Origin: a bacterium
Lineage (GTDB): Bacteria; Patescibacteriota; Microgenomatia; Daviesbacterales; UBA10151
DNA: 64,000 bases
Assembly (NCBI GenBank): GCA_021786315.1
Contig: JAJYNN010000002.1
Span: 204,402 to 268,401 of the forward strand
Reading direction: 5' to 3'
Positions within the stretch are counted from its first letter, which is position 1, and each line of letters opens with the position of its first letter. This document shows positions 11,301 to 56,257 of the stretch, in pieces. The position numbers were made by a program, and so were the translations under genes. Under the pieces are notes generated by a model, which was given only the letters and a program-made list of their open reading frames with translations, made no database searches and had not been told where the DNA came from.

Positions 11301-12240
11301 GGTTTTGTCTGATAGCAGCCACTGCTGACATGCTGATTTTCTGATCCTGCTGATTCTTTGATTCTCCGATCTTCTGGCTTTCTGAAGCTTGCCCGAAGAT
11401 CTGTTTGGTGCCTTGGGGGTTGACTGAATATCCGGTAACCAGAAAGGCGGTAATTAGCAGGGTAATGACGGCTAACCCGGCAACGAAGAATCCAGCTTTC
11501 CTGATGTAGTTTGGAATGGTTTGTGATATTTGATAAGTGCCGATAGTGATAATTTCGGGCTCGGAAGAAGAGACTGGAGAGCTGAGCAAGGCGTCACCTT
11601 GCCTGACGTCAAGGTGACGCCTTGCTTCTTCCTCGGGCTTGTTTGAGCTCGTGAATGTTGCCAGATCAACCTCCTTATATACCCTTTCACCGTCCTGGTT
11701 GCGGGAAGCAACGAGCTTACCGGCCTGGTCCCAGCGCCTTAAGGTTTTAGTGGAAACCCCTAAGTTTTTGGCGGCTGCGGAGATAGAGAGGACTTTGTCT
11801 AGGGCAACGGTATGGTTAGTGCTTTTAGAGCCGAATTTGAAAGCTTCCAGGGCTTCTTTGGAATAGAGTCTGGTTCCACCCGGAGTTCTGGTTGGGGTGA
11901 TCTTGCCGGTTTTCTCCCAGCGGCGGAGGGTATCAATGGAAATCTTGAGGTATTTGGCAGCCTCGCCGATGTGCATCAGAGTATCGGAGGATCGATGTGT
12001 CGGTGTATCGGAATTTCGGTGGGTCAGAGTATCAGTGTTTTGGTGTTTTGGTGTTTCGGAAGATTGGGTTTTGATCCAAGAGGGGGTAGAGTCGGAAATC
12101 CAGGGGTCTTGCGGGGCCTCCATGGTTTTGACTTTCTTGGTGGCGGCTTTCTTAGAAGCTTGTTTTTTTGTTGCGGAAACCAGGGGTTTAAAGACCAAAG
12201 AAGTGCTATTTTTTTTGGCAGTTGCAGACGGTTTTTTCAT
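2365..12240 (-). CDS. Giant 3291-aa membrane-anchored fibre/adhesin-like protein: two cytoplasmic MerR/excisionase-type HTH (HTH_17-like) motifs, one TM helix, about 20 'GNVGIGTTxPxxxLxV' beta-helix/tail-fibre-like repeats, C-terminal globular domain plus SAQLAST heptad coiled coil.
   Basis: Uninterrupted ORF in the six-frame track. HTH-like segments: IGEAAKYLKISIDTLRRWEKTGKI and ISAAAKNLGVSTKTLRRWDQAGKL. Hydrophobic segment: FFVAGLAVITLLITAFLVTGY. The repeat motif recurs about 20 times; the C-terminus has the coiled coil QLASTSAQLASNSAQLASTSAQL. Confidence 0.85.
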   Translation of the reverse strand: MKKPSATAKKNSTSLVFKPLVSATKKQASKKAATKKVKTMEAPQDPWISDSTPSWIKTQSSETPKHQNTDTLTHRNSDTPTHRSSDTLMHIGEAAKYLKISIDTLRRWEKTGKITPTRTPGGTRLYSKEALEAFKFGSKSTNHTVALDKVLSISAAAKNLGVSTKTLRRWDQAGKLVASRNQDGERVYKEVDLATFTSSNKPEEEARRHLDVRQGDALLSSPVSSSEPEIITIGTYQISQTIPNYIRKAGFFVAGLAVITLLITAFLVTGYSVNPQGTKQIFGQASESQKIGESKNQQDQKISMSAVAAIRQNQQVLGASTSKPSFIASLLQPFDNLAQSIITNFAPAKAKDLGFHKNSDDQRFNLDETAIIEVDDKTIANRKELAQQIKQSDRKIDNVNANLTEISTSLPQGIAYVDFIGKTIIDSYGNVYPSNSGLAPPVKPTIGTTTNPYYGLYLHRFSVDNGGNLKVLGQTTLGESGDDYVKIVGRLSNDLIPEANGVESLGDGDHYWKNAYINNITGATAGYATLMVSSVLNLPDGTAASPALTFTNDPDSGLYRLSANTIALTTNGTAGNGITINSSGNLGIGTTSPAYTLDVSKNVSGSTYLARFNNTNPDGDLNILFDNQSTHATALVNAVDGTKEFAIYTQPSPAKTSFLTYPNGGPARFSMTIEEGGNVGIGTTSPIAPLHVESTYTNPSVANLYNIYGKVTVTSGYNGSPYPAAKGGYFESDFTGTNTQRTMMGSDSRVYNTSSGTITYTYGATGALYNQSTGTFTNGFGTFGLISNVTGATLTTGAGAYGSIINSGTTSTGYGVEGYLINSSGGTWTTASALYGNVSNSGASTITTLRGLDLSGWSNSGTVNTSYGIYMDNSIDVGATKYALYSSSASNSYLAGNVGIGTTSPDYLLTIQKDNQDMVSWRNSTYELGRLGYVGVDAVDAGWIGLYSSGNKTININASGSSYFNNGNVGIGTTSPTYKLDVAGTARLGATTVTGAISASTGSLDIGSAGVKFGTIYADTVNATSLVGTVVGGQTDSADWTINADNVSADTEPMNLIFERGTETPNAILGWDIGKQFTLNSGLSITNGIGSGNVGIGTTSPASLLDVMGTAKLTQLDFRNAGATLDTSGNNLRFVNTGIDDRAAIDITNGNMYVKGNLGIGVSTMPTQAGLAVMSGNVGIGTTAPSQALDVVGNQSLSGKLALGGSSIDSNTYSNLNLTIAPSAVTYGYLANLTTTTAKNIYPGTFIANNNSSSGAISWQPGIAVQSNNNDAGTITGALGGDIRVQNTSSGTIATAYGLYLPIFNTSNGNITTAYGIWSKIRSGSSASGTISSASLYYGTGEVGNASGTIGTLYGLNLSGWSNSGTVNTSYGIYMDNSIDVGATKYALYSSSASNSYFAGNIGVGTTSPSQLLNVYSPNQGAIASIETAQANEYAELYLVSNGDMWSISHESNNNRLGIYEGSDERLSIKDGGNVGIGTTNPGVKLEVASSLGTLTSPSSVTNFRVRNDGSTSNNAGISIVSGNAASSYLLMGDNENDDIGFIEYNNTNNWMAFTTNGSEKLRINSAGNVGIGTTSPSTLLDVNGTSTFRGASTYNGNLTLNYSGTAVVGSPSTAYNSYALNLSSNEWNSATGNETKTAVIQMRPRTVNVNPTVATLSFDVGSATNILNLQDNGNVGIGTTAPATLFDINSKFNVLSSGNVGINKVTPGGTAASAKLHIVGDNVTNNAVLIAQQGVGTTYTNYRNGLLVGMGGDTNNHDVAIWSDGSSLGFIQSVQLSNSFKPLALNPNGGTVGVGYANPGTTAALAVNGNLGIGTTAPNYLLSVSNGATDYFTVDSTSATYNVPTSFTSSGDVSMAYDLNFTNPTASNIKSQAPLSITAGETFNSSDLSLNTYNAGSVNITQNNQPTASGTAYALQVLPNLTSSTNSLTYTAQYGTYSVPTVNLSGTSGTVTSLYNNYQGLTASAGTVTNWYGYYVAAPTGAGTVTNKYAFVSESGTGNVGIGTTAPEDLLSIVQPSAAYLSEIVRIANNNGSGSEELRLGVDTTGLFSFIQSTHQGTGQTPLILNGAGGNVGIGTTNPAYKFSVVAGTNANVYIGQDTINRGLLFFTDAANNEQYADLRAYDFTFKTNNLNRMFISQSGNVGIGTTSPQYLLDIGSGGAGYEVHINDDLKVEDLSQAGRMYTPGSLIIGDATTYQGATQPTYGALIQGNVGIGTTSPQSSLQVYGSTEGKGITVGGISTWADADILRMYSDGDTTSYIKRVEDSGDANGGYGLIRFETNANNAAYNGLGGFNFGKTSGPDYLRITNMGNVGIGTTNPVSLTNIFGNSSSNTSLLYLDQNSTGDAAMNFRIVGTTGWRMGIDNSDSDKFKISSSTLSDDFGTDYLTITTSGNIGIGTTNPSQLLHLNNGNLYVNGGTIGLSTTPDSAKQLYVDHTYSNTSGTEYGIFSNTRADFGGTAATTSVFGTHGQVILGANQLADSTSGDVAGGLFQVTHLGQATQGAAKALEAVVRVGYPGAGNAANILTNGYGLYVQSPNVDSAHSSSLVNAYGLFLEAQKATGVSTGYGIYQAGASDISYFAGNVGIGTTAPGNFSGLSFTGPILDVNGPIQTRTGTLNIGGSTYRKAAISTPTADAADPYLSFYVVPSGSSSTANEDMRIDKTGNIYLANINSSLGSATLFAGNAGNVGIGTTSPVQKLEVNGDFRLWRDGLNNMGLQVGFNNTNNITNMSFRDRTDTNYQDVFMEGKSWTFRYNGNSTAGLSIASTGAVSMNLRTTANTYALCHATNGPAMEEITDCNGSATDLAENYGTTDSSIEAGDLVIATGQAKVVADPHEGKPTSKAYMAKSSQPYQSNILGIISTNPNQLYGDDIFDPSENPRPVSLAGRVSLKVSTENGPIQTGDYITSSSISGVGMKATRPGQVVGKALQDYSGTGIGKILVLVNVTFADPSDILANLTLDTDGSLIVPKLKAGTLEIDGPATVNGSLQVADSSLNSSDLTSSGTPAAASSATPNYIEVASTLKTFDNQLATQSAQLASVTAQADVLSAQVASTSAQIASTSAQLASNSAQLASTSAQLAKVQSDVDSLKLTPPDTLLATTSAQLVDLKVTSDATISGKLEAYDTEIQNSFKSFGETTLGNTTIAGDLTQDGTLSITSGNTINSLGTLYLQSSPLADTVDFFNGQVTIDKTGRIVATEVVAKTVTTEKLNIANPVSGAEHIGTATIPAGATEIPVNTTATTANSKVFLTATSSTGGQALIVSYQEAGLGFIVSLDHTYASDIKFNWWIVDSSQ
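3000..3125. repeat. Tandem 21-nt repeat (about 5-6 units; ggccagttgggcggaggtgga-like) encoding the SAQLAST heptad coiled coil of the giant protein.
   Basis: Read directly on the plus strand: gccagttgggcggaggtggaagccagttgggcggagttggaagccaactgggcagaagtggaggcaatttgggcggaagttgaagc. Confidence 0.8.
8020..8200. repeat. Intragenic near-identical duplication, copy 1 of 2 (about 160-180 nt; encodes LSGWSNSGTVNTSYGIYMDNSIDVGATKYALYSSSASNSY.AGN.G.GTTSP).
   Basis: The same long nucleotide string (…ggaggcggaggaggagtagagggcatatttggtagccccgacatcaatggaatt.tccat.tagataccgta.gaggtattgactgtgccgga…) recurs at 9535-9700. Confidence 0.8.
9535..9700. repeat. Intragenic near-identical duplication, copy 2 of 2.
   Basis: See copy 1; protein segments ...LSGWSNSGTVNTSYGIYMDNSIDVGATKYALYSSSASNSY... 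occur twice in the giant ORF. Confidence 0.8.
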
Positions 12241-12478: not shown

Positions 12479-12489
12479 ATGAAATTCTC

Positions 12490-15666: not shown

Positions 15667-15748
15667 AAAAGGTTTCTACTTAGCAATCCGCTATTTTTTC
15701 TGCTAGGCTATTAAAGTCCCAGATTAGGTTGTCGCAGAGCACTTTTAT

Positions 15749-15784
15749 AAGGTGACGCCTTGATGTACATCAAGGCGTCACCTT
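15749..15784. repeat. Type-1 palindromic element (perfect 36-nt palindrome).
   Basis: aaggtgacgccttgatgtacatcaaggcgtcacctt, flanked by ttata...gagaac. Confidence 0.85.
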
Positions 15785-15799
15785 GAGAACTCTTCTTGC

Positions 15800-16903: not shown

Positions 16904-17037
16904 GAATAATTCTCAATTTACAATTTTCAGTTTTCAAATAATTTTCAAAATCTAAATTTCCAAACAGCTTGAAAATTCGGTCATTGAAAATTCATTCTAA
17001 ATTGGTACTTGGTAATTAAAAATTTTATACTAGATAT

Positions 17038-18042: not shown

Positions 18043-18157
18043 ATTTACAATTTTAAGTTTTTAAATAATTTTCAATGATAAAATTTTTAAATTTAAGACA
18101 TTCTAATTCGATTTAAAATTTGAGCTTTAGAATTTAAAATTATGGTATGATTATTCT

Positions 18158-19922: not shown

Positions 19923-20990
19923 ATGTTTAAAAAAGAAGAGACCGGCAGAAGAAAACGAGGTGGTTTTTTACCGATTGTTCTATTTAGACTCAGTCTTTCG
20001 ATGTGCATTTTGGCAATTTTTGCTTTGGGAGTCTACCAGGCTTTCCGCTATTTTACCGGCCAGTCCTTAATGGATTTGACCCGGATTAATCCCCGGGAAG
20101 TGGTGGTTTCCCTTTTGACTTCGGATGATATTTCCAAAACCATTTCCGGAATTTTGGGGGTCAGTGTTCCCACTAAAAATCTTCTTCCCGGTTCAGGCAG
20201 CAGCGGGGTCACAAAGCCGGGCTCGCCCCGGCCAACACCTTCCGGATCAATAATCTTAAAATTTGCTGTTATTGCCGACTCCCACTCCGATAATGAAGAC
20301 CTTGGCAAGGCTTTGGCACAAGCCAAAGAAAACGGAGCCAAGTTTGTGATTGGGCTGGGGGATTATTCCGATACCGGGACTTTGGGAGAGCTGGAAAAAG
20401 CCAAGGAGGTATTTTCTGCTTCCGGTTTGCCCACTTATCTTACTGCCGGTGACCATGACCTTTGGGACTCCCGGGATAAAGGTAAAATGGCCACGGCCAA
20501 CTTTTCCGAAGTCTTTGGCTCACCGTACCAAAGTTTCACCGCTTCCAATATCCGCTTTATTTTACTGTTTAACGGGGACAATTATGAGGGAGTGGATTCT
20601 GTCCAGAGGGCCTGGCTGGATGATTTGCTGCACAATACCAGCCAAAAATCAGTCAAGGAAACCCTGGTTTTCCTGCATGAGCCTTTGTACCACCCGACAT
20701 CGGACCGGTTTATGGGGGCAGCGATTAAGACGGATGAAGGCAAGGAAGCAAATAAGGAATTAACCAAGCAGGCAGAAGAACTGCGGGATCTTTTTAAAAG
20801 GGTAGGGGTGGCAGGAGTCTTTGCCGGGGATATCCATGCCTATTCTAACTACGATGACCCGCAATATGGCCTGAGGATGGTGACCGCCGGGGCAGTCACT
20901 TCCAAGCGTAATTCCCAAAAGCCCCGCTATATGATGGTTGACGTTTATGAGGATGGTGGGTACAATATTTCGGATATAGAAATAAAATAA
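19923..20990 (+). CDS. Membrane-anchored calcineurin-like metallophosphoesterase.
   Basis: Motifs GDYSD, AGDHD, FLHEP, GDIHAY; N-terminal TM. Confidence 0.75.
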   Translation: MFKKEETGRRKRGGFLPIVLFRLSLSMCILAIFALGVYQAFRYFTGQSLMDLTRINPREVVVSLLTSDDISKTISGILGVSVPTKNLLPGSGSSGVTKPGSPRPTPSGSIILKFAVIADSHSDNEDLGKALAQAKENGAKFVIGLGDYSDTGTLGELEKAKEVFSASGLPTYLTAGDHDLWDSRDKGKMATANFSEVFGSPYQSFTASNIRFILLFNGDNYEGVDSVQRAWLDDLLHNTSQKSVKETLVFLHEPLYHPTSDRFMGAAIKTDEGKEANKELTKQAEELRDLFKRVGVAGVFAGDIHAYSNYDDPQYGLRMVTAGAVTSKRNSQKPRYMMVDVYEDGGYNISDIEIK

Positions 20991-21070
20991 ATTTTCAAGT
21001 CTCAATTTTAAATTCTCAATGAATTTTTAATGATTTAATCTTGAAAATTGTAAATTGAAAATTAATCAAT

Positions 21071-21960: not shown

Positions 21961-22668
21961 ATGGCTGTCCCCAGACACTTTAAAAAGATCTTCGCGATCC
22001 GTTTTCTGGGATATTTCTTAATGCAGGTGGGGCTGTTAACGGTAGTCTTAATCGCTGAGCCGGTGGTGGCGGAAGAAGCCAAATACCGGTTCGACCAGGT
22101 TACCGGAAAGCACTATTCTTTACCCACAGTCATTACCTCCACAGGTCAAACAGCACCCGATAGCAACTCTGACCAGGGAAAATCCTCCTTCGGAAGCTTG
22201 GTTGGTAGGGGTTCGGAAACTATTGTCCCTGTTTCCACGGATTTTGGCATCGTCATTGAGAAAATTAATGCCAATGCCAGGGTAATTGCCAATGTTGATC
22301 CCTCTAATGAAGCAGAGTACACCCAGGCTCTGGGCCAAGGTGTAGCCCATGCTAAAGGTACAGTTTTTCCCGGACAAAAAGGGAATATCTATCTTTTTTC
22401 CCATTCCACAGATGCCCCCTGGAACATTGTCCGCTTTAACGCCATCTTTTATCTTTTGCGGGAGCTTGATCCGGGGGATAGGATAATTATGTTTTACCAG
22501 GGTCGAAGATACGACTATATTGTCTTTGATAAGACCATTGTGAAACCCGAGGATACGGAGTTTTTGACTAACAGTTACGATGAGTCAGTGCTGACACTCC
22601 AGACTTGTGATCCGCCGGGAACACTCTCCAACAGATTAATTGTCCGAGCTAAATTAGTAGGAAACTGA
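21961..22668 (+). CDS. Sortase-family transpeptidase (membrane anchored).
   Basis: Catalytic motifs LFSHS (His) and LTLQTCDP (TLxTC Cys). Confidence 0.75.
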   Translation: MAVPRHFKKIFAIRFLGYFLMQVGLLTVVLIAEPVVAEEAKYRFDQVTGKHYSLPTVITSTGQTAPDSNSDQGKSSFGSLVGRGSETIVPVSTDFGIVIEKINANARVIANVDPSNEAEYTQALGQGVAHAKGTVFPGQKGNIYLFSHSTDAPWNIVRFNAIFYLLRELDPGDRIIMFYQGRRYDYIVFDKTIVKPEDTEFLTNSYDESVLTLQTCDPPGTLSNRLIVRAKLVGN

Positions 22669-22675
22669 TCTTAAA

Positions 22676-22980
22676 AGGGCACTCCTTGGCGTAAGGCAAG
22701 GGGTTACCCCTTCGGTTTGAGCCCTCAGGGTCGAAGACTTATGAATTGGAAAGGTATGGTTTTTCTTTTGCGTCTTTTTTAAGAACTTGCTCTCAAGTTC
22801 GCAAGACCTTGCGACAGCAAGCTGTCTTAAAAAAAGACGCCCAAAAATCGCCCACGGGAACGGTCCCTAAATTCTACGGCTTGCTGGTCGGGGGAAAGCT
22901 GCCCCCTCGATCACGGCTTTGCCGGATCGGCATCCCCCTGACAGCTTCGCCTAGAATTCTTAACGGGCTTGCGTTCCAGT
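22676..22980 (+). ncRNA. Candidate structured RNA/MITE element, copy B. It is identical to A over about 150 nt but carries an extra about 50-nt hairpin inserted in its first stem-loop.
   Basis: ...aagacgcccaaaaatcgcccacgggaacggtccctaaattctacggcttgctggtcgggggaaagctgccccctcgatcacggctttgccggatcggcatccccctgacagcttcgcctagaattcttaacgggcttgcgttcca. Confidence 0.4.
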
Positions 22981-23007
22981 GGGCTAGGGAAAAAGAGGAC
23001 GGAAAAC

Positions 23008-24291: not shown

Positions 24292-25500
24292 TCAACAGCT
24301 TTCTAACACTTTGAGGGTTTCTCTGGCAGCTTTTTCCCAGGAGAATTTCTTGATTTGGGAAAATCCCTTATTGGAAAGTTCTTTTCGCAGCTTCGGATCG
24401 CTTGTCAGTTTACTGATTCCTTTGCTAATTTCCTCTTCCTGGTAAGGGTTGACGATGATGGCGGCGTTTCCGGCCACTTCCGGACAGCTGGAAGTATTGG
24501 AAGTTAAGACCGGGCAGCCGCAAGCCATGGCTTCCAGGATTGGCAAGCCAAAACCTTCAAACAGGGATGGGTAAAGGAAAGCTAAAGCCCCGGAATACAA
24601 AGCCGGAAGTTCCTCATCTGGAACATATCCTAAAAATTTAACCTGTTTTTCAATGCCTAATTCTTGGGGTAGGGAGTAAATCTCATCTGCCAGCCAGCCT
24701 TTGGAACCAGCCAAAACAAGCTGGAGTTTCTTATAAGGTGACGCCTTGACGTACGTTAAGGCGTCACCTTGAAAACCGGTCGCCCCTTGCTTTATAAATT
24801 TGGCATATGCTTTAATTAACTGTTCCAGGTTTTTTCTGGGTTGGATAGTTCCTACAAACAGGAAATAATTTTGATCTTCTAAGTTATATTTCTTTAGCGT
24901 TTGTCCTAATTGACTGCCCCTTACCGGTTTAAAAAGTTTTTCATTGTAACCCTCGTAAACAACAGTAATTTTATCTGCCGGTATCCCTACCTTATTAATT
25001 AAATCTTCTCTGGTGGACTTGGAAACGGCAATGATATGGGTAGCAGACTTCAATTGCCGGTGAGTCATAAAGTTTAAGTAAAGCCTTTGTTTTAATTGAT
25101 GGGTTCGAGGTAAATATTCCGCTCCCAAATCGTGGACTGTGACCACAGTTTTTAGGCCGGGTTTACGGAAAAGGGGGAGCGTGTGGGCGGGGATGAAAAG
25201 GACATCCAGATCTTTCTCTAAAAATGTTCTTTTCGCCAAGCCATACTGGGTCCAGAGCCTGTGCAAAGGTATGAGATCAGCCTCAAAATTAGCGGCTTCC
25301 GCTATCCCGGACCCGATCCGGGATCTAAATTCCTGGATCCCTGCTTTCGCAGGGACGATCCCGGAAAACGGACTTAAATAAACTTTATATTGATTCCGGT
25401 GGTCAATTTTAGCCAGATGAGAGAGTATCTGGTAGGAATAATTCTCTGTCCCTGTCCTTTTGCCTATAAAAGATCGGGATGCATCGTAGCCAATGATCAT
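24292..25500 (-). CDS. Family 1/4 glycosyltransferase carrying an in-frame palindromic-element insertion.
   Basis: C-terminal GT-B motif FEGFGLPILEAMACGCPV; the hairpin element encodes GFQGDALTYVKASPYK. Confidence 0.8.
   Translation of the reverse strand: MIIGYDASRSFIGKRTGTENYSYQILSHLAKIDHRNQYKVYLSPFSGIVPAKAGIQEFRSRIGSGIAEAANFEADLIPLHRLWTQYGLAKRTFLEKDLDVLFIPAHTLPLFRKPGLKTVVTVHDLGAEYLPRTHQLKQRLYLNFMTHRQLKSATHIIAVSKSTREDLINKVGIPADKITVVYEGYNEKLFKPVRGSQLGQTLKKYNLEDQNYFLFVGTIQPRKNLEQLIKAYAKFIKQGATGFQGDALTYVKASPYKKLQLVLAGSKGWLADEIYSLPQELGIEKQVKFLGYVPDEELPALYSGALAFLYPSLFEGFGLPILEAMACGCPVLTSNTSSCPEVAGNAAIIVNPYQEEEISKGISKLTSDPKLRKELSNKGFSQIKKFSWEKAARETLKVLESC
24735..24770. repeat. Type-1 palindromic element inserted in frame inside the GT4 gene.
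   Basis: aaggtgacgccttgacgtacgttaaggcgtcacctt lies within ORF 24292-25500, and the reading frame is maintained. Confidence 0.85.
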
Positions 25501-25612
25501 AATAATTTCTAATTTTTAATTTACAATTTTTAAATAATATCTAAATGATTAAATGTTTTAAAATCGGAACATTGATAATTTATTTAAAATTTAAAATTTA
25601 TAATTGAAAATT

Positions 25613-26632
25613 TTATCTCTTGCTTACGCTCCTTTTATACAAGTCCAGGTTTTCCAGGGCCATGCCTGTTCCATAGGCCACGCACATCAAGGGGTTCTCG
25701 GCAACATGGCAGGGAACACCGGTGGCCTCGGTCATGAGTTTATCCAGGTTGTTCAGTTGGGAGGTGCCTCCGGAAAAAACAATACCTTTATCGATAATAT
25801 CTGAAGCTAGCTCCGGGGGAGTCTGTTCGAGAACGTTTTTGACCGCAGCCACAATTTTTTGCACTGTTGGTTCAATCATCTCATGGACTTCAGCGGTGGT
25901 AAGCTCAATAGTCCGGGGAAGTCCGGTGATGGCGTCCCGGCCCCGGACAGGCAGGGTTTTATTCTCGCTGGATTTAGGGTTAGTTGCTGAAGCGATCCTG
26001 ATCTTAACCTCTTCGGCCTGGTTTTCCCCGATTATCAGTCCGTATTTCTTTCTGACAGCAGTCTGGATAGCCTCGTCAACCTTATTGCCGCCAACTCTGG
26101 CTGAGTTGTGGACGACCACACCTCCCAGACAGATCACCGCCGCCTCGGTGGTGCCCCCGCCGATATCCACGATCATGTTTCCGGAAGGGTTGGCAATTGG
26201 AATCCGGGCGCCGATGGCTGCAGCCAATGGTTCATCAATCAGATAGGCGGTTTTGGCGCCGGCAGAGAGGGTAGCGTCAAGCACGGCCCGGCGTTCCACC
26301 GAGGTCACTCCGGCAGGGACACAAATCATCACCTCCGGCTTAAAAAGGTGGGAGTGGCCGCAAACCTTATCGATAAAATAACGGAGCATGGCTTCAGTGA
26401 TGACGTAATCGGCGATAACCCCTTCGCGGAGCGGCCGGGAGGCGGTGATATTACCCGGAGTGCGTCCCAGCATCTCTTTAGCTTCGTTTCCGACAGCCAA
26501 TACCCGGTTATCATCAGTGGAAACAGCCACCACAGTCGGCTCATTTAAGACAATTCCTTCGCCGCCCAAATAAACCAGGGAGTTGGCAGTGCCTAAGTCA
26601 ATGCCGATGCGTTTGCCTAAATTAAACATCAT
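25613..26632 (-). CDS. mreB: Actin-like MreB/Mbl paralog 1.
   Basis: IGIDLGTANSLVY...; sugar-kinase/actin fold motifs throughout. Confidence 0.85.
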   Translation of the reverse strand: MMFNLGKRIGIDLGTANSLVYLGGEGIVLNEPTVVAVSTDDNRVLAVGNEAKEMLGRTPGNITASRPLREGVIADYVITEAMLRYFIDKVCGHSHLFKPEVMICVPAGVTSVERRAVLDATLSAGAKTAYLIDEPLAAAIGARIPIANPSGNMIVDIGGGTTEAAVICLGGVVVHNSARVGGNKVDEAIQTAVRKKYGLIIGENQAEEVKIRIASATNPKSSENKTLPVRGRDAITGLPRTIELTTAEVHEMIEPTVQKIVAAVKNVLEQTPPELASDIIDKGIVFSGGTSQLNNLDKLMTEATGVPCHVAENPLMCVAYGTGMALENLDLYKRSVSKR

Positions 26633-26741
26633 CTAAATTTTACTTCCGGGTTAACCCGATCACAAGACCTATTAAATATATAGAAATAGAACAAGAAGTA
26701 AAAGTTGAGAGTTATAAGCAGAGCTTGCGGCTGTTGGCCTA

Positions 26742-26778
26742 AAGGTGACGCCTTGCCTTACGACAAGGCGTCACCTTG
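26742..26778. repeat. Type-1 palindromic element.
   Basis: aaggtgacgccttgccttacgacaaggcgtcacctt. Confidence 0.85.
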
Positions 26779-26803
26779 AGAAAAACATGGTACACTATGA
26801 GAA

Positions 26804-27550
26804 ATGGAAGCTACATTAAGATCTGTAAACATTTTTGGAGTCCGGGTAGACAAAGTGAATATGGAGGAATCTGTGGGTATAGTGGAAGGTTGGTTAGAAG
26901 GAAAAGAAAAACACTATATTGTAACCCCGAATCCCGAATTTATAATGGCTGCACAAAAGGACGAGGAGTTTAAAAAGGTTCTAAATAATGCCGACTTAGC
27001 AGTTCCTGACGGAGTGGGGTTAAAACTGGCAAGTGATATAGAAAGCAATACTCCCGGAGTTTATCTTTTGGAGGGGCTTTGTAGGGAGGTTTCAAAAAAG
27101 GGCTTTACAGTAGGCTTTTTGGGTGGCAGGAATGGGGTAGCAAAGAAAGCCGCCGAGTGCTTACAGAAAAAGTATCCCGGACTAAAAGTGAGTATTGCCG
27201 ATGATGGCGGGAATATTGATTCCGACGGTGAATCGCTCGGGGTCTTGCCACCTAGCGATTTTCCAAAAACCGACATACTATTTGTCGCGTATGGCCAAAT
27301 TAAGCAGGAAAAATGGATTTATAGGAATTTGGAAAAGATTCCGGTTAAAGTAGCCATGGGAGTTGGGGGATCATTTGATGAGATTTCCGGTCGGGTGTTG
27401 CGGGTTCCCCGTTGGGTGCACAACTTGGGCTTAAAATGGTTGGTCAGGCTCATCCTTCAGCCTTGGAGAATCAAAAGACAGCTAGCGCTTATTAAATTTA
27501 TATGGATGGTGATAAGCGCTAAATTTTCAATGATCAATAACCAATTTTAA
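26804..27550 (+). CDS. WecB/TagA/CpsF-family (GT26) glycosyltransferase.
   Basis: VNIFGVRVD...YIVTPNPEF...DLAVPDGVG is a typical GT26 N-terminus. Confidence 0.75.
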   Translation: MEATLRSVNIFGVRVDKVNMEESVGIVEGWLEGKEKHYIVTPNPEFIMAAQKDEEFKKVLNNADLAVPDGVGLKLASDIESNTPGVYLLEGLCREVSKKGFTVGFLGGRNGVAKKAAECLQKKYPGLKVSIADDGGNIDSDGESLGVLPPSDFPKTDILFVAYGQIKQEKWIYRNLEKIPVKVAMGVGGSFDEISGRVLRVPRWVHNLGLKWLVRLILQPWRIKRQLALIKFIWMVISAKFSMINNQF

Positions 27551-27658
27551 AATAAACCTCAATGATTAATGTTCAAAATTTAAACATTCAGAAATTAGAA
27601 ATTCATTGAGACTTGAAAATTGTAAATTGAAAATTTAATTTGTGCTACACTGGAAAAG

Positions 27659-29099: not shown

Positions 29100-29190
29100 T
29101 TTAACGTTTTTGGCTCTGCAAATACCCTAATCTACCTGCACTAGCAAAACTTCCACCTAATTGCCAATTTTCTGTCTTTTGTTCTTAAAG

Positions 29191-29428
29191 AAGGTGACCT
29201 CCTTGACGTTAGGCAAGGGGTCACCTTAAGAATTGAAAAGCTAATGTTTTTTTGCAACTTTGGTGGCAAAGTTGCGCAAAGCCACTTGCAGTGAAAGTCG
29301 ACCTAAAACCTTCATCAGTTGTCTAGCGGGAACTTTACCCTTCGGAAATTCGGCTACTTCGTAGCGTCAGTTTCCGCTTTCCCTGCTGCCAACTGACTTG
29401 GTTTTTTAACGGTCTTTGTTTCAATGCA
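29191..29428 (+). ncRNA. Candidate structured RNA/MITE element, copy D (the most divergent).
   Basis: aaggtgacctccttgacgttaggcaaggggtcacctt + aagaattgaaaagctaat + ttgcaactttggtggcaaagttgcgcaa ... ctagcgggaactttaccc ... ttttttaacggtctttgtttcaatgc. Confidence 0.35.
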
Positions 29429-29467
29429 AGGGAAGATGAAACGGATAAACAATTGGAAGAAAATATC

Positions 29468-29683
29468 TTAAGCGGCAGATGCTGATTTTTGAGTGATACC
29501 GAGTAACCAGAGGACAGCTTCCTTCTTGTAACGGCGGTCACCCCTAGAGTTAATTCTAATTGCCGGTAATTTTCCCCTTTTGCCCCATCTTTTAATGGTT
29601 AGGGGAGAGACACGCAAAACTTCAGCAACTTCTTTGACAGTTAATAAATCAGGAAGATTTTCGAGTGATACTTTGTCCGCCAT
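29468..29683 (-). CDS. Small stand-alone HTH (MerR/excisionase-type, HTH_17-like) DNA-binding protein.
   Basis: LTVKEVAEVLRVSPLTIKRWGKRGKLPAIRINSRGDRRY; resembles the HTH motifs at the N-terminus of the giant protein. Confidence 0.65.
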   Translation of the reverse strand: MADKVSLENLPDLLTVKEVAEVLRVSPLTIKRWGKRGKLPAIRINSRGDRRYKKEAVLWLLGITQKSASAA

Positions 29684-29737
29684 ACTGAATCTTTTCTGTA
29701 ACTTTTTAGATGACCAAACATATCAAAGTCATCGCAA

Positions 29738-29759
29738 AAGTGACACTAGCTGTCACTTT
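29738..29759. promoter_or_regulatory. Perfect palindrome aaagtgacactagctgtcacttt upstream of the small HTH gene; candidate operator.
   Basis: Inverted repeat AGTGACA-ctagc-TGTCACT, 55-75 nt upstream of the start at 29683. Confidence 0.4.
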
Positions 29760-29799
29760 TATATCACAACTCGTCAGATAGTGTCAATACTTTAACACA

Positions 29800-29830
29800 A
29801 AAAAGACCCCGTTTCCGGGGTCCTTTTTGA
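29800..29830. terminator. Rho-independent (bidirectional) terminator downstream of rplL.
   Basis: aaaaagaccccgtttccggggtcctttttg: a GC stem flanked by A and T tracts. Confidence 0.8.
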
Positions 29831-29850: not shown

Positions 29851-30405
29851 TTACTGTAATTCTACAGTGGCTCCAGCGGCGGTTAATTTAGCTTTAGCTT
29901 CTTCAGCTGTAGCTTTATTGACACCCTCCAAAACTGGTTTTGGAGCAGCTTCGACTAAGTCTTTAGCTTCTTTCAAACCAAGAGTGGGGACGAGTTCCCG
30001 AACAGCTTTAATAGCACCAATTTTGTTGGCACCAGCATTAGCGAGAACTACGTTAAAGGTTGTCTTTTCTTCGGCGGGTTCACCAGCGGCTGCGGGAGCA
30101 GCTCCGGCTGCGGCAACTGCTACAGGAGCAGCAGCTGTGACGCCAAACCTGTCTTCCAAAGCCTTAACCAGCTCAGCGAGCTCGAGCACTGAAAGTGTTT
30201 CGATAGACTCGATGATCTTTTCTAAGGAAGCAGAAACTGGTTTCGCGGCTTTCTTTGGCTCTTCAGCGGGAGCTTCCTCTTTGGGAGCTTCAGCCTCAGG
30301 AGCAGTTTGTTCCTCAACAGGAGCAGCTTGCTCTTCAACTTGAGTTTCCTCAGCTGGAGTTTCAACTTGCTCTTCTGCTTGTACATTTTGATCTTCGTCT
30401 GCCAT
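29851..30405 (-). CDS. rplL: Ribosomal protein L7/L12 with an acidic low-complexity N-terminal extension of about 55 aa.
   Basis: Canonical region [33 protein letters not shown] ... [11 protein letters not shown], preceded by [20 protein letters not shown]... Confidence 0.85.
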
Positions 30406-30479
30406 ATTGCTTTGTCATTCCGGACTTGATCCGAAATCTAATTTATTTAGACCCCTGATCAAGTCAGGGATGACGTACT

Positions 30480-31010
30480 TTATTCACCCCCTTTCTGTAT
30501 TCTAATTTGATCTAAAGCATAAACTAAGTTTCTTAAATTGCCCTGCAAAACATTGAGCATTCCAGTCAAAGGTGCGGCCAATGTGCCCACAACCTGAGCC
30601 CGGAGTTCTTGTTTGCCAGGTAGAGTAGAAAGCCTGGTGATAGCGGCGCTGTCCAAAAATTGGCCATCCAAAATACCACCTTTGATCTTACCAACCTGGT
30701 TATCCTTTAAGGCTTTGACTAAAAGTTTGATCGGGGAGATCTCGTCTTCATAGCTGAATAAGGTAGCAATTGGCCCTTTTTGGGTTTCTTCAGGGAGAGT
30801 AGGGAGGTCAGCATTCTTTAAACCTAAATTCAAAAGGGTGTTTTTGGTAACGGTAAACTCAGCCTGGGCCTCATCCAGCTTCTTTCTTAAATCAGAAAGC
30901 TGGGCCATGGTCATGCCCTGATAATCAGTAAAAACCACAGACCTGGATCTGCTTAGCTTATCACCGTAATTTGTAACTGTTTGCTCTTTTTGAGCCCGAT
31001 TTTTAGCCAT
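30480..31010 (-). CDS. rplJ: Ribosomal protein L10.
   Basis: Position upstream of rplL, length, and an N-terminal region typical of L10. Confidence 0.8.
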   Translation of the reverse strand: MAKNRAQKEQTVTNYGDKLSRSRSVVFTDYQGMTMAQLSDLRKKLDEAQAEFTVTKNTLLNLGLKNADLPTLPEETQKGPIATLFSYEDEISPIKLLVKALKDNQVGKIKGGILDGQFLDSAAITRLSTLPGKQELRAQVVGTLAAPLTGMLNVLQGNLRNLVYALDQIRIQKGGE

Positions 31011-32176: not shown

Positions 32177-33202
32177 GATCTCAGATTATCATATAATGAA
32201 TTGATGTTAAACCGGAAGGTGTTAATTCGGATTCTTTTAAACTCCCTTTTGGGGGTTATTTTAATCTTTGTTTGGAGCCGGTTTGTTAACTTAAATGAGC
32301 TTATAAAGGTTTTAAAGACGGTAGACGCCCGGTTTGCCGTAGTCTTTTTCTTTCTGTTTATCATCTCGGGGGTTTTGAGAAGTCTAAGGCTTAAACTTCT
32401 TTTAAAACACTATAAATTTTCCCTGAAAGATTTAATTATGCTTAACTATTTGAGCCAGTTCTTGTCTTTTTTAATCCCGGTTCGGGCAGGGGAGATTGCC
32501 AAAAGTGTTTACCTTTCCACCCAGATGGAAACTTCCTTATCCAAAACCGTAGTCTGGGTGTTTATTGACCGCTTCCTTGATTTTTGGATTGCGGTAGTTT
32601 TTATTGGCGCCTTGTTACCGTTTATTAAAACCAATCTGCCGGGGGGATTTATCAATATCGTTATTTTGGCGCTGGTCATATTTACCTTGGCCTTTTTTGT
32701 TGCCCTAAAAAGTGAGGATTTAATTAAGAAAATCGCTAATTTTTTGAGTAATTTCTTGGTTGTAAGTAATATTAAGAAATGGTTTGTTACATTTACGCAC
32801 AATATTGCGGAAGGGTTTGAGGTCCTCCGCCGGCCGCCTTTGGGGCTGGCAGCTTTGATTGGTCTTACTGTCCTGGCAACACTTTCTGATTCCATGGTTT
32901 GGATAATTGCTTTTCGGGCGTTTGATTTTAAATTGGATGTTTTAAGAAGTGTTTGGGCGGACGCCTTAACTGCCTTAACCTTTTTAATCCCATCAGCGCC
33001 GGGATATGTCGGGTCGGCGGAGGCAGCGGGGGCAGCTGTATTTACCGGGATTTTAGGTTTGCCGATCAATATAGTTTCCGCAGCTTTGGTCTTCTTCCAT
33101 ATCTTAACATTGCTGACAATCTTGATTCTGGGAATTACCTCGTTGTACCTATTAAAGTTTGATTTAGGTATAGTTTGGAAAAAACTCCGCAGTAAAGACT
33201 AA
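32153..33202 (+). CDS. Lysylphosphatidylglycerol-synthase-TM-like (UPF0104 / flippase-like) membrane protein.
   Basis: Polytopic; LRSLRLKLLLKHYKFSLKDLIMLNYLSQFLSFLIPVRAGE fits the family's conserved region. Confidence 0.6.
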   Translation: MLKTKVGHDLRLSYNELMLNRKVLIRILLNSLLGVILIFVWSRFVNLNELIKVLKTVDARFAVVFFFLFIISGVLRSLRLKLLLKHYKFSLKDLIMLNYLSQFLSFLIPVRAGEIAKSVYLSTQMETSLSKTVVWVFIDRFLDFWIAVVFIGALLPFIKTNLPGGFINIVILALVIFTLAFFVALKSEDLIKKIANFLSNFLVVSNIKKWFVTFTHNIAEGFEVLRRPPLGLAALIGLTVLATLSDSMVWIIAFRAFDFKLDVLRSVWADALTALTFLIPSAPGYVGSAEAAGAAVFTGILGLPINIVSAALVFFHILTLLTILILGITSLYLLKFDLGIVWKKLRSKD

Positions 33203-33206
33203 AAAA

Positions 33207-33438
33207 AGGTGACTGCCTCGCCGGATGGCAGGCGTCACCTTAAGAACTGGAAAGCTAAGGTTATGTTCACGCTTTTGGCCGCAAAAGCGTGGGAAAACTC
33301 TGCTCGCAGAAAGTCGCCCTAAACCTCGTCATTTTCTAGTCGGGGGCTCACCCCCTCGGAAATTCACTGGTTGAGAGTTCAGTTTCCGGTTCCCCCTGAC
33401 AGAAAACTCCTCGGTTTTTAACGGGCTTGCGTTCCAGT
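33207..33438 (+). ncRNA. Candidate structured RNA/MITE element, copy C.
   Basis: aaggtgactgcctcgccggatggcaggcgtcacctt + aagaactggaaagctaag + cacgcttttggccgcaaaagcgtg ... ctagtcgggggctcaccccctcgg ... ccccctgacag ... ttaacgggcttgcgttccagt. Confidence 0.4.
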
Positions 33439-33501
33439 CAAAGAAAAATAGTATTTGGTTTCAAAGCGAGCAAAATAGAATTAAAAGGAGTATTAGAAAA
33501 A

Positions 33502-36822: not shown

Positions 36823-39216
36823 TTACTGGGTTGTTTGGCTGGGGGAAAGGACTGAAAAGAGGTTAGCGGAAGTCATATTACTGGCCTCGACTCCGGTGGT
36901 GGGGCTGACTTTTTGGTAGCCGATGACTGTTTTGGATACCTGCCCGGCAATCCCTAAGTCCCTATTCCCGTCAACCGTGGTTTCAATAATCCCCTCAGGC
37001 TGTTTGAAAGCTATATCCGGTTTGCCCCGAAGTAAATTATCCATTAGATCCCGCCAAATGGGGGTGGCTCCGGTAATTCCGGAAGATAGAGTCGGATCCA
37101 TTGGGGAATAATCGTTATTTCCCACCCAGGCGCCAACGACATATTCCGGGGTATAGCCGAAAGCCCAGTTGTCCCGTTTATCATCTGAAGTTCCGGTCTT
37201 GACAGCGACGGTGTGATCGGGAATATAAAGCTGGGAATTGGCCCCAAAAGCCGGAGTCCGGGCCCGGTTGTCAGATAAGACATTATTTAAAAGGTAGGCC
37301 ACCTCTTCGGTTAAAACTCTTTGTCCGGGATCATTTCGGTGGTCCTCTAAAACATTGCCTGAAGAATCGGTAACTGTCAGAATTGCCTGAGGTGCAAAGT
37401 GGACGCCACCGGAAGCCAAAGTCCCGTACACTCCCATCATCTCGATCATCCGGACAGCTTCACCCCCTAAAGTCAGAGACAATCCATACTCGGAAGTCCG
37501 GTTAAAGGTTGTAATACCCATATCTTTGGCTGTCTGGACCATAGCCGGAATGCCTACAATTGCCAGGGTCCGGACGGCGGGGATATTGTAGGAAGATCCA
37601 AGGGAAGTTCTGATGGGAACTGCGCCGTGGTACCTGCCGTCGTAATTTACCGGGGAATATCCTTGTCCCCAAGGGTTGGTGTAGGTCACGGGGGCATCCA
37701 GGATTACATTTCCCGGGGTCATGCCCTGTTTAAAGGCGGTGGCGTAAGTTACAACTTTGATGGAAGAGCCGGGTTGGCGTAGGGCTAAGGCGACGTTGTA
37801 GTTTCCGCCGGAAGGATCAAAGTAGTTTTTGGAGCCTACCATGGCTAAAATCCTGCCGGTTCTGGCATCGGTGATCATTGCTGCCCCGTTTCCGACTTTT
37901 AAGTCTTTCAGTTTATCAACTTCGGTGGCGACAACATTTTCCGCCATTTCCTGTAAATCAAGATCCAGGGTGGTGACAACCTTCAACCCCCCCTGGGAAA
38001 CGACTTTTTCCCCGTATCTTTGGGCCAGAAGATCCCGGACATACATTACAAAATGGGGGGCTTTGATATTGGTGACCGGGGGCTGGAAGGCAAGCTGGTC
38101 AGAGGATGCCTTGTCTGCATCTTTTTGGGAAATATACCCATCCTCAACCATTCTTCTTAAAACTTCCTGCTGCCTTTCCCGGCCCTTTTCGGGGTGGGTT
38201 CCGTAAGGGGAGTATTCACTGGGGGCAGCGGGTAAACCTGCCAGGTAAGCGCTTTCGGCCAAGCTTAAGTCTTTGGCGTCTTTGCCAAAATACATCTTGG
38301 CGGCAGCCTGCACTCCCCAGGCTGGGCCGCCGTAAGGTGAACTGTTTAAGTACATTTCCAGGATCTGGTCCTTGGAGTAGATCCGTTCTGCCCAAAAAGC
38401 TAAAATGGCTTCCTTAATCTTGCGGGCAAAAGTTTTATCGGGGGTTAAAAGGGAATTTTTAGCCAGTTGCTGGGTTAAGGTCGATCCCCCCTGTAAAGGA
38501 TCAGCTTGATCGGAAACCAATACGCCTTGGGAAGATAAATTATGTTGGAGGGCCCGGGCGACTCCGGCGGGATCAATCCCGGGGTGGGTATAAAAATGCT
38601 TGTCCTCGATGGCAATTGTGGCTTGGATTAAATAAGGGGGAAGGTCGGAAAGTTTTACCGGCTGGCGGTTTCGGCCTTCATAAAGTTGGTACAAGACCCG
38701 GCCCTTGCGGTCTAAAATTGTGGTGGTGGAAGCGGTATTGGCAGTGATTAAAGATTCCGGGGAGGGGAGCTGGCTGGCAATTTTGGCCACACAAACTGAG
38801 TAAAAAATCAGGAGGAGAAAAACGCTCAAAGCAGCAATTCTTAAGCGGGAACGTTTAGGGATAATTTTATCAAAATTTTTCCTGGCCTTTCGCAGATAAA
38901 ATTCCTTAAAAGGTGTGGTCCGGGGACGGCCTCTTCCTTTTTTAAAACCTATTTTTCTCAAGGGCACCCCGTGCCTTGCGACAAGAAGTGCCCTTGCAAG
39001 AGGTCCAACGATGCCTCTTAACAATTGAATTGTCTTGATAAAAAGGAGAAGAGCTAGTAATCCAATGACCTGAAAAGGGATAAGGGGGGAAAATTTGAGC
39101 CACAAGCCCCCTCTTGTCGGATTTCTTTTTCTTTTGCTGGTAGAAGGTTGTGTTTTGCTCATTAACACCAGCTGGAGGGCAGTCCAAGGGGATTTTCCCT
39201 GCTCTCCTAACCTCAT
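36823..39216 (-). CDS. Class A penicillin-binding protein (glycosyltransferase plus transpeptidase), copy 1. The N-terminus may be over-called: a palindromic element is encoded at its 5' end.
   Basis: GT51 motifs (EDKHFYTHPGID, GGSTLTQQL) and TP motifs (SSIK, KTGT). TM LRIAALSVFLLLIFYSVCVA. Confidence 0.8.
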   Translation of the reverse strand: MRLGEQGKSPWTALQLVLMSKTQPSTSKRKRNPTRGGLWLKFSPLIPFQVIGLLALLLFIKTIQLLRGIVGPLARALLVARHGVPLRKIGFKKGRGRPRTTPFKEFYLRKARKNFDKIIPKRSRLRIAALSVFLLLIFYSVCVAKIASQLPSPESLITANTASTTTILDRKGRVLYQLYEGRNRQPVKLSDLPPYLIQATIAIEDKHFYTHPGIDPAGVARALQHNLSSQGVLVSDQADPLQGGSTLTQQLAKNSLLTPDKTFARKIKEAILAFWAERIYSKDQILEMYLNSSPYGGPAWGVQAAAKMYFGKDAKDLSLAESAYLAGLPAAPSEYSPYGTHPEKGRERQQEVLRRMVEDGYISQKDADKASSDQLAFQPPVTNIKAPHFVMYVRDLLAQRYGEKVVSQGGLKVVTTLDLDLQEMAENVVATEVDKLKDLKVGNGAAMITDARTGRILAMVGSKNYFDPSGGNYNVALALRQPGSSIKVVTYATAFKQGMTPGNVILDAPVTYTNPWGQGYSPVNYDGRYHGAVPIRTSLGSSYNIPAVRTLAIVGIPAMVQTAKDMGITTFNRTSEYGLSLTLGGEAVRMIEMMGVYGTLASGGVHFAPQAILTVTDSSGNVLEDHRNDPGQRVLTEEVAYLLNNVLSDNRARTPAFGANSQLYIPDHTVAVKTGTSDDKRDNWAFGYTPEYVVGAWVGNNDYSPMDPTLSSGITGATPIWRDLMDNLLRGKPDIAFKQPEGIIETTVDGNRDLGIAGQVSKTVIGYQKVSPTTGVEASNMTSANLFSVLSPSQTTQ
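38957..38998. repeat. Variant palindromic element (caagggcaccccgtgccttg...gtgcccttg) at the 5' end of the PBP ORF (in frame or 5'-UTR).
   Basis: ctcaagggcaccccgtgccttgcgacaagaagtgcccttgcaag. Confidence 0.6.
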
Positions 39217-39330
39217 TGTAAGTGACTGAAATTAAAAAAGAAGGCTGATTAAAGATATCAAAAAGGGTCAAATAAACTCAAATTTTAAAATCCAAATTTT
39301 AAAATAATTTTAAAATTTAAAATTAAAAAT

Positions 39331-40353
39331 TTAGAATTGGGGCTTAAATAACCCCTTAGCATATTCCCAATATTCTGGATGGCCATGAAGTTTCATATAG
39401 TACCACCATTCAACACCCCAAAAGTATTGGTCCGAAAGCCTGGTCCATTTGGTAAAATCCACCACTTCTTTAAAGTTGTCTAAAGTGAAAAGCTTCATCT
39501 GTTCCGGAATAGGCATATCCAGAACTGATTTGCCGGGAGTCCAGGGTTCTGCTTGAAGCTCACTGACAAACACTCCCCGGGAAGATCCGGCAAAAATTAA
39601 TCTTGTCAGCTGGGCTTTTAAGTCGTAATACAGAGGCGGGAAGGGATAGCGGAAATAGCCAAAAAACGGGTTCCAAACAATACGGTATAAAGAGGTGCCC
39701 ATAATGTTCGAGTTCTGGAGAGCTGTAACCCAGGTTCCCAATTCTCCGGAATCAGTCAGGATAATTGGCCGGGAGTCGAGGGACCTTACTGATCCAACTT
39801 CTTCCTTTAAAAACGGTTCACCAAGCATCCGGCAGATCCCAAAATCCAAAAGCGGCTCGTTTTCTACCTGCCAGGCAACTATTTCCGGGTCATTTTTATA
39901 ATGGGTGACAGTTTCTTTGACCATCCTTAATACTTTTTGCTGCAAAAGGTTATTGTCCAGGCTATTGGCCCAAGGTGGGGTAGAACATTCAGGCCAGCGG
40001 GGAACTTTGTATCCGATTGCCAGAATTACTTGAGCTCCTCTTTCCTTAGACGTTTTTAACAGGTTGTCATATTCCGAAAAGTCAAACTTGCCGTCCTCCT
40101 TTTCAATAGTGTCCCAATAGACAGGCATTCGGACTTTTCTGGATCCTAGATCATCTAAGATTGCCTGGTATGTGGTTTGCAGGTCCAACCCTAAATACTT
40201 GGTATAGCTTACAGAAAAGGTGACCCCATAGGAGGGTTTAGGGGCGGGAATAAAGAGGCGGGTTAAAAAATCAGTGCCCCAAAAAAGGGCGAAAGCAATA
40301 AAGGTGATAAGCGCCAGAGCTATTAAATATTTTAAAACTTTATGCAGGCTCAT
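39331..40353 (-). CDS. Membrane-anchored glycoside hydrolase, GH5-like (cellulase/mannanase superfamily).
   Basis: WQVENEP (acid/base NEP motif); TIM-barrel-like length. Confidence 0.55.
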   Translation of the reverse strand: MSLHKVLKYLIALALITFIAFALFWGTDFLTRLFIPAPKPSYGVTFSVSYTKYLGLDLQTTYQAILDDLGSRKVRMPVYWDTIEKEDGKFDFSEYDNLLKTSKERGAQVILAIGYKVPRWPECSTPPWANSLDNNLLQQKVLRMVKETVTHYKNDPEIVAWQVENEPLLDFGICRMLGEPFLKEEVGSVRSLDSRPIILTDSGELGTWVTALQNSNIMGTSLYRIVWNPFFGYFRYPFPPLYYDLKAQLTRLIFAGSSRGVFVSELQAEPWTPGKSVLDMPIPEQMKLFTLDNFKEVVDFTKWTRLSDQYFWGVEWWYYMKLHGHPEYWEYAKGLFKPQF

Positions 40354-56255: not shown

Positions 56256-56257
56256 TT

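Follow-up and report, generated by a model that had tools for sequence, protein, structure and literature searches.

A small BldC-like winged-helix gene beside rplJ and rplL in Microgenomates bacteria, and the lineage-specific inverted repeat in its promoter

This analysis concerned a gene for a 71-amino-acid (aa) helix-turn-helix (HTH) protein, together with an inverted repeat in its promoter, in a 64-kb stretch of a patescibacterial genome (GenBank assembly GCA_021786315.1, contig JAJYNN010000002.1, positions 204,402 to 268,401). This whole stretch is called the window, and all coordinates refer to it. The gene probably encodes a BldC-like, housekeeping DNA-binding protein of the Microgenomates group with a global regulatory or architectural function; the repeat, in the same reading, would be a lineage-specific feature unlinked to the 3291-aa giant protein that is encoded elsewhere in the window. 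The original prediction for this locus, made from the DNA sequence, had instead treated the repeat as an operator of the 71-aa protein, and had suggested that this protein may be the soluble partner of a membrane-tethered homologue, the giant protein.

The open reading frame (ORF) at 29468–29683 starts with ATG on the minus strand and encodes exactly the peptide that was originally quoted. It is a real gene, because an independent public contig from SRR13201255 calls the exact protein with the same neighbours and because the N-terminus, MADK(V/I/L)SLENLPDLLT, is kept among relatives from residue 1. The HTH class first proposed was confirmed, since Pfam matched the protein above the gathering threshold to HTH_17 (PF12728; E = 3.7e-11, 43.5 bits against a cutoff of 27), MerR_1 (40.7 bits, cutoff 21.6) and MerR (31.6 bits, cutoff 28.2), all within the HTH_17/MerR HTH clan. 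The top NCBIfam model, at a score below its cutoff, was HTH_BldC (NF033787), and the closest sequence in the PDB was Streptomyces BldC (6AMK and 6AMA; E = 3e-9), with 48% identity over 64 aa. The AlphaFold2 (AF2) model, with a mean pLDDT of 78, consisted of a strand (residues 13–15), two helices (16–23 and 27–36), a two-strand wing (including a strand at 50–53) and a third helix (54–60), after which the chain ended in a disordered tail. When this model was compared with the PDB using Foldseek, the best seven matches were all BldC chains (TM-score normalised to the target, 0.75–0.86), followed by RacA, HiNmlR, Pukovnik Xis and MtaN; RdfS was also among the fold matches. Together, these sequence and fold matches point to a single-domain MerR-type winged HTH with the architecture of BldC. 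The gene is a new, uncharacterised variant among the BldC/Xis-like single-domain winged-HTH proteins.

A word-indexed protein search with the 71-aa protein recovered 6639 homologous clusters; the best 120 of these were 89–99% identical to it and included Daviesbacteria copies above 90%. A core of 66 residues was almost invariant among relatives and only the Ser-rich tail varied. In a collection holding one genome per species, at least 426 places were confirmed, with relatives at 78–97% identity and top matches that all belonged to Microgenomates-group Patescibacteria. The best 80 of these places carried Daviesbacteria, Levybacteria, Woesebacteria, Beckwithbacteria, Shapirobacteria, Pacebacteria or Microgenomates records, while many of the other place records bore generic names, some evidently wrong.

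The genomic position of the gene was also conserved. At about 50 of 82 loci, rplJ and rplL lay directly upstream on the same strand, and on the identical public contig their products matched the Pfam families Ribosomal_L10 and Ribosomal_L12. The other neighbours were a GPI-family isomerase, a ROK kinase and glycosyltransferases, and no integrase or recombinase was found nearby. In the 36 genomes that allowed comparison of all three genes, at loci picked for their similarity to the HTH protein, the median identity to the window proteins was 91% for the HTH protein, 70% for L7/L12 and 54% for L10. The HTH protein stayed 80–90% identical where L10 fell to 33–40%, and was 78–97% identical across hosts whose L10 was only 33–62% identical. 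The HTH gene evolves more slowly than the adjoining ribosomal protein genes; it is a core, syntenic, housekeeping gene of the Microgenomates group, and no accessory regulator.

BldC (PDB 6AMA and 6AMK; Schumacher et al. 2018, PMC5859096; Bush et al. 2019, PMC6428758) resembles the 71-aa protein in being a single MerR-type winged HTH of about 70 aa that has no dimerisation, coiled-coil or effector domain. Both genes are chromosomal, vertically inherited and strongly conserved inside their own clade. However, BldC belongs to developmental Streptomyces, whereas the present host is a non-developmental, ultra-small bacterium in which the gene is linked to rplJ-rplL. BldC binds direct repeats cooperatively as head-to-tail multimers, and its loose binding unit is AATTNNNNC followed by A (PMC5859096). 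Its R30 enters the major groove and reads a YpG step, while H46 enters the AT-rich minor groove; the head-to-tail interface combines an E16-R22 salt bridge with hydrophobic packing of F21, V23 and W31 on L11, I40, T42, L43 and G44, and binding is lost in the G44E, H46E and R30A mutants (PMC5859096). A polar residue at position 43 has been argued to prevent a dimer (PMC5859096), and BldC has been discussed as both activator and repressor, with traits like those of nucleoid proteins (PMC6428758). A full-text literature search listed no paper that connects BldC with Patescibacteria.

These residue roles were transferred to a subfamily profile built from 107 cluster representatives. The equivalents of BldC E16, R22, V23, R30, W31, K36 and I40 were almost invariant; R32, which aligns with R30 of BldC, was arginine in 102 of the 107. 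Interface positions E18, R24, L23, V25, W33, L13, I42 and I44 of the 71-aa protein also fit BldC. Among the differences, K26, L43, G44 and H46 of BldC are replaced by L, N, S and D. The wing histidine is therefore absent here, as H46 aligns with D49, which was aspartate in 98 of the 107 representatives. BldC L43 and G44 align with N45 and S46, in a loop where the alignment is uncertain, beside a one-residue insertion, R47; this extra arginine might take over the role of the wing histidine. The wing of the subfamily reads R-I-N-S-R-G-D-R-R-Y, one residue longer than that of BldC, and proteins with this wing form a distinct, tightly defined sister subfamily to BldC. Among public proteins, P0144, P0145, P0152, P0160, P0183 and P0190 carry two to eight tandem RGDRR-wing HTH copies per chain. 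These are in effect covalent arrays of the module that occurs singly in the 71-aa protein, and they hint at side-by-side binding to DNA, the arrangement expected of such modules.

The spacer below rplL contained, in order on the minus strand, a terminator hairpin, a -35 hexamer, an 18-nt spacer and an extended -10 box (see Table 1). Since the pattern TTGACA-N17/18-TGnTAnnnn precedes almost every one of about 79 orthologues examined, the promoter in the window is no chance match to the consensus. From standard sigma-70 geometry, transcription would begin near 29751, which is the last base of the promoter-proximal arm of the inverted repeat.

The full repeat, AAAAGTGACA-CTAGC-TGTCACTTTT, has perfect 10-nt arms around a spacer that is not self-complementary. 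It had been described as a 22-nt perfect inverted repeat; the repeat is real and its arms are perfect, but the string quoted was 23 nt long and, with its asymmetric 5-nt spacer, is no perfect palindrome. Its assignment to the promoter region was correct, as the repeat includes the final three bases of the -10 hexamer and covers the predicted +1, which is an operator-like position. The exact pattern was unique in the window (0.04 expected even with three mismatches allowed). More generally, short-looped inverted repeats whose arms reach 9 nt or more numbered 17 in the window, mostly intergenic, against approximately 2.5 expected from Markov simulations; hairpins of this kind are common between the genes of this genome. 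The leader contains the arm a third time, about 40–54 nt from the repeat, or roughly four to five helical turns; of the six AAAGTKACA sites in the 64-kb window, three sit inside one 65-nt stretch of the HTH promoter and leader. Each arm fits the loose BldC unit, with an A/T tract, four bases and a C-G pair with a TpG step, although about two matches to this unit are expected by chance in a region of this size, as estimated from base composition. A scan of a metagenome collection for AAAGTGACA-N5-TGTCACTTT was uninformative: it returned at least 120 contigs from unrelated organisms (GC 0.23–0.66), mostly with A/T spacers, and among the matches listed none had a CTAGC/GCTAG spacer or a BldC-like gene. 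A further site at 48002–48018, in the 450-nt spacer from a 747-aa gene to tRNA-Thr, reads TGTCAC-TTTAT-GTGACA and so pairs the two hexamers of the HTH-promoter repeat across an equal 5-nt gap, but everted; among 24 such hexamers in the window, these two sites were the only close pairs.

Comparison with related loci (numbered with the prefix L) showed that the repeat was absent from about 85 orthologous promoters, except on one contig that was identical over the whole upstream stretch compared. It was missing even at loci with 97–99% identical protein, and the half-site was not kept in any orthologue. The repeat is not an operator conserved across this protein family. Among 78 loci whose promoter could be recognised, 19 had only 7–10 nt from the -10 box to the start codon, which allows for a few leader nucleotides at most, and the same was true of L202 and L204–L206. 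In many Daviesbacteria (L002–L032, L202, L204–L206), the start codon follows the -10 hexamer at a distance of exactly 10 nt, implying a nearly leaderless mRNA; the consensus of this short leader is ..AGA-ATG, with a GTG start in L204–L206. L202, whose protein is 99% identical, reads TATAAA-AAACACCAGT-ATG, with a 10-nt leader, while the window reads TATAAA-A...TTCAGT-ATG, with about 64 extra nt. As L202 lacks this stretch, the repeat would lie in lineage-specific inserted sequence that is missing from the nearest relatives.

The long leaders of other lineages were not homologous to that of the window, and several carried palindromes with unrelated half-sites. Palindromes unrelated to that of the window occurred at L008, L009, L203 and L207, and those in the leaders of L005, L009, L017, L027 and L203 were of the GAAGATC type; Levybacteria-type loci carried TAATCA-N3-6-TGATTA, and the arms of the repeat in the L079 leader, ATATAACAATTATAA, were 15 nt long. 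Of 59 long leaders, 13 had an inverted repeat that beat 95% of shuffles. The HTH leader is thus a recurrent site of palindrome gain, and no recognition sequence is shared across lineages. The repeat in the window is real, operator-like in position and lineage-specific, and it may serve in local repression by the 71-aa protein or another protein, or be a by-product of leader insertion.

Some features of individual leaders were also recorded. In L005, L017, L027 and L203, the old ATG is kept before the inserted palindrome and could open a tiny upstream ORF. The promoters of L033–L075 (Levybacteria-type) contain a TTGTTAy-N4-TTGTTAC direct repeat with a 10-bp period over the spacer and extended -10, and their leaders contain either the TAATCA palindrome or ATTGAT-N3-4-ATCAAT; L041 and L045 show a difference of the T·G type, with which pairing in RNA would still be feasible. 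Inspection by eye of the near-leaderless orthologous promoters found no consistent complementarity between the conserved spacer TCTG and the CAGA/TAGA before the ATG. No convincing BldC-type units (W4-N4-CA), a pattern too loose to carry significance, were found in the conserved orthologous promoters.

An action of the repeat in RNA, or a passive origin, is possible if somewhat unlikely; the repeat would then be a back-up terminator hairpin of GUGACA/UGUCAC and UUUU for rplL read-through, part of a structured 5' leader, or a leftover of insertion or duplication with no regulatory role. In favour of this, HTH leaders are a hot spot of lineage-specific insertion, and inverted repeats are in excess in the window. 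A 43-nt segment lies between two 11-nt direct repeats, AAAAGTGACAG and AAAAGTTACAG, an arrangement that a duplication would produce, and RNA that includes both arms folds at -23.1 kcal/mol (z -2.8). However, the predicted start lies inside the repeat, so that the HTH mRNA would lack the left arm and the repeat, if it acts, would act on DNA. When folded from that start, the RNA was no better than shuffles (z -1.5), and the reading of the repeat as an RNA hairpin was rejected on these grounds. Moreover, the AT-rich stem would make a weak terminator where a strong one is already present 45 nt upstream. The stem-loop predicted further down the leader could, according to the folding model, be enclosed in RNA by the distal arm of the palindrome and the third arm copy. 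A search of the promoter and leader, together with the neighbouring structured element, against Rfam produced only chance-level matches, both at the gathering threshold and at E up to 10. Insertion of an element resembling a miniature inverted-repeat transposable element was considered because of the direct repeats around the 43-nt segment, but was kept as a possibility only, as clear terminal inverted repeats were not found.

Autoregulation, in which the repeat is the operator of the 71-aa protein, perhaps within a regulon that the membrane-anchored giant protein shares, is quite unlikely. The position of the repeat over the -10 box and predicted +1, the perfect 10-nt arms and the helical spacing of the third copy all suit it, as do the fit of the arm AAAAGTGACA to the BldC unit and the conservation of the contacting arginine. 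Yet the DNA-binding helix and wing of the protein are nearly invariant, and a specific operator should then be conserved too, whereas neither repeat nor half-site is kept by any orthologue; other lineages have no leader at all, or have the unrelated half-sites GAAGATC, TAATCA and ATATAACAATTATAA. The arms are inverted, whereas BldC binds direct repeats, and inverted repeats are in any case common in the spacers of this genome. Recurrence of the palindrome, which an operator of this kind would lead one to expect, was looked for in the window, in the orthologous promoters and upstream of the giant gene, and no second copy was present; the region upstream of the giant gene contained a single isolated 9-mer, with one mismatch and some 450 nt before the ATG. 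Absence of further copies had been named originally as an outcome that would refute the idea, and by that standard the operator-regulon model fails. The heptamer AGTGACA has three exact copies within the giant coding region, and these are not in an operator-like arrangement.

The relationship with the giant protein was distant. The 3291-aa protein (2365–12240, minus strand) consists of a basic N-terminal region, two MerR-type HTHs, a hydrophobic segment at approximately aa 245–268 and a very long, repeat-rich remainder. When the HTH-family profile was run over the window, its only other matches were aa 90–133 and 149–192 of this protein. The 71-aa protein is 40% and 42% identical to these two domains over 45 aa (BLASTP), and 34% and 32% identical over the whole domain. 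The original claim of paralogy, based on a shared RRWxxxGKL signature, therefore stands at the level of the superfamily, with T-x-RRW-x3-GK common to all three domains, but this signature is generic to the MerR/HTH_17 clan and the wings differ. Those of the giant protein are of the classical MerR type (TPGGTRLY and NQDGERVY) and lack RINSRGDRRY, and the best models for its HTHs are excise, HspR and RacA, rather than BldC. Unlike the 71-aa protein, the giant HTHs belong to a chain that continues into a membrane segment and an enormous extracellular region rich in repeats. The proposed pairing of a soluble and a membrane-tethered regulator found no support: the small gene is universal among the Microgenomates, as part of their syntenic core, so nothing points to a dedicated pairing, the giant HTHs are generic, and the giant gene has no such operator. 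The giant protein also has at least 13 repeats (DNA repeat family D1) that carry the motif GNVGIGTTSP; close to its C-terminus lies a heptad-like stretch rich in Ser, Ala and Gln.

An excisionase, or recombination directionality factor of an integrated mobile element, is extremely improbable: the TIGR01764 'excisionase family DNA-binding' domain passes its cutoff (37.3 against 28.8 bits), PHROG excisionase families match at E = 1e-8 to 1e-10, and Pukovnik Xis and RdfS resemble the predicted fold, but the neighbours are housekeeping genes both in the window and at related loci, no recombinase is nearby, and the place after rplJ-rplL is retained across candidate phyla by a protein that diverges far less than L10. 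The TIGR01764 model describes the fold, not the function. Thus, of the 'excisionase- or MerR-like' regulator first suggested, the MerR-like part was upheld by Pfam and the excisionase part is unlikely. Xis-type proteins (TIGR01764; Pukovnik Xis, 4J2N; RdfS, 8DGL) share the same small winged-HTH fold and multimerise on DNA, whereas the 71-aa protein has neither a partner recombinase nor a mobile-element context, and combines a housekeeping position with extreme conservation. Classical MerR regulators (MerR, CueR, BmrR, MtaN, HiNmlR) have an N-terminal winged HTH homologous to the 71-aa protein and bind palindromes inside promoters, in a 19–20-nt spacer. The 71-aa protein differs in having no coiled-coil dimerisation helix or effector domain, as it ends after the third helix, and its promoter differs in being well formed, with an 18-nt spacer and a repeat over -10/+1. 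Neither protein nor promoter therefore has the characters of a classical MerR transcription factor.

The reading preferred here, a BldC-like housekeeping protein with a lineage-specific repeat in its promoter, suggests the following mechanism. By analogy with BldC, the 71-aa protein would be an abundant global DNA-binding regulator or architectural protein. R32 of its recognition helix would lie in the major groove, with the arginine-rich wing RINSRGDRRY reaching into the minor groove, and binding probably involves several adjacent copies. The gene would be expressed from its own strong promoter with an extended -10, usually behind rplJ-rplL. Any protein bound at the repeat would be predicted to repress the HTH gene, because the repeat covers the -10 box and start site.

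Several observations weigh against this reading. The HTH_BldC score of 45.7 bits is below the NCBIfam cutoff of 77. The BldC residues L43, G44 and H46, which are essential for head-to-tail minor-groove binding, are N, S and D here, and R47 is inserted, so that the binding mode of BldC is not simply transferable. The conservation contrast with the ribosomal proteins is biased upward, in that the loci were chosen as best matches to the 71-aa protein, although this choice leaves the gap within individual genomes unexplained. Finally, a repeat over -10/+1 with 10/10 perfect arms and a third copy nearby fits a real operator in this lineage, and each of its arms agrees with the loose BldC unit of AATTNNNNC followed by A.

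A stronger proposal is speculative, and we regard it as rather unlikely: the RINSRGDRRY-wing protein could be the main nucleoid-associated protein or global transcription factor of the Microgenomates, essential and more constrained than L10 and L7/L12, made from a nearly leaderless message beside rplJ-rplL, with its dosage tuned in some lineages, this one included, by newly gained palindromic operators. Few regulators can be recognised in Patescibacteria, and the organisation and control of their DNA are almost unknown. A protein of approximately 70 aa that is 80–97% identical over several candidate phyla, and fixed beside ribosomal genes, makes a promising candidate for the central chromatin or transcription factor of the group, and is short enough to be synthesised and tested in vitro. 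It would also take the BldC family, so far represented only by a developmental regulator in Streptomyces, into a housekeeping role in bacteria that do not develop. For the repeat and the pairing, the outcome is deflationary: the palindrome is a local oddity, and nothing supports the suggested partnership with the giant surface protein.

Table 1. Positions of the HTH gene, its promoter elements and related features in the window
Feature	Position	Strand	Basis or remark
71-aa MerR-type winged-HTH gene, BldC-like, with RINSRGDRRY wing	29468..29683	-	ORF, Pfam, PDB search, AF2/Foldseek
Third arm copy AAAAGTTACAG, direct orientation, in leader	29696..29706	-	10/11 identical to promoter-proximal arm
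Predicted leader stem-loop GATGAC-N13-GTCATC	29709..29733	-	RNA folds; weakly supported, z -1.5 from predicted start
Inverted repeat AAAAGTGACA-N5-TGTCACTTTT (10+5+10) over -10 box and predicted +1	29736..29760		Unique in window
Extended -10, TG-a-TATAAA, 18-nt spacer from -35	29758..29766	-	Sequence; conserved in orthologues
-35 hexamer TTGACA	29782..29787	-	Sequence; nearly all of ~79 orthologous upstream regions
GC-rich hairpin with T-runs on both sides; rplL terminator separating rplL from HTH promoter	29805..29822	-	Found on +; symmetric, T-run on minus too
rplJ (30480-31010) and rplL (29851-30405), conserved upstream neighbours	29851..31010	-	Pfam; ~50/82 loci
Two MerR-type HTH domains of 3291-aa protein (aa 89-135 and 148-195)	11656..11976	-	Distant homologues, counted outside the HTH-gene system

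The L7/L12 protein encoded in the window is 184 aa long, of which about 55 residues form an acidic N-terminal extension, rich in Pro, Glu and Ala, before the usual domain; the median length in the cluster from related loci was 145 aa.

A structured element occurs in four copies, all on the plus strand (12870–13140, 22660–23000, 29170–29450 and 33195–33500), and the HTH gene adjoins the third of these, as had been noticed originally. Each copy opens with a GC-rich hairpin, which is followed by GAATTGGAAAGCTAAG, another hairpin and a core that spans about 130 nt. RNAalifold predicted 27 pairs for the cores, 11 of them with compensatory double changes, and no Rfam family was matched at the gathering threshold or at E up to 10. 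Three copies directly follow the 3' end of plus-strand genes, in convergent spacers.

The hairpin that opens each copy of this element belongs to a short family, AAGGTGACGCCTTG-loop-CAAGGCGTCACCTT, scattered in intergenic spacers and one coding region (11585–11623, 12487–12525, 15741–15792, 24727–24778, 26734–26785, 38957–38995, 59495–59546 and others), which resembles repetitive extragenic palindromic (REP) elements or terminators. In addition, AT-rich intergenic repeats of approximately 60–115 nt with AATTTTCAATT/AAATTGTAAATTGAAAATT motifs lie between many genes in both orientations (16905–17024, 18032–18145, 20978–21063, 25501–25624, 27519–27641, 39270–39340, 56243–56356 and 63905–64000).

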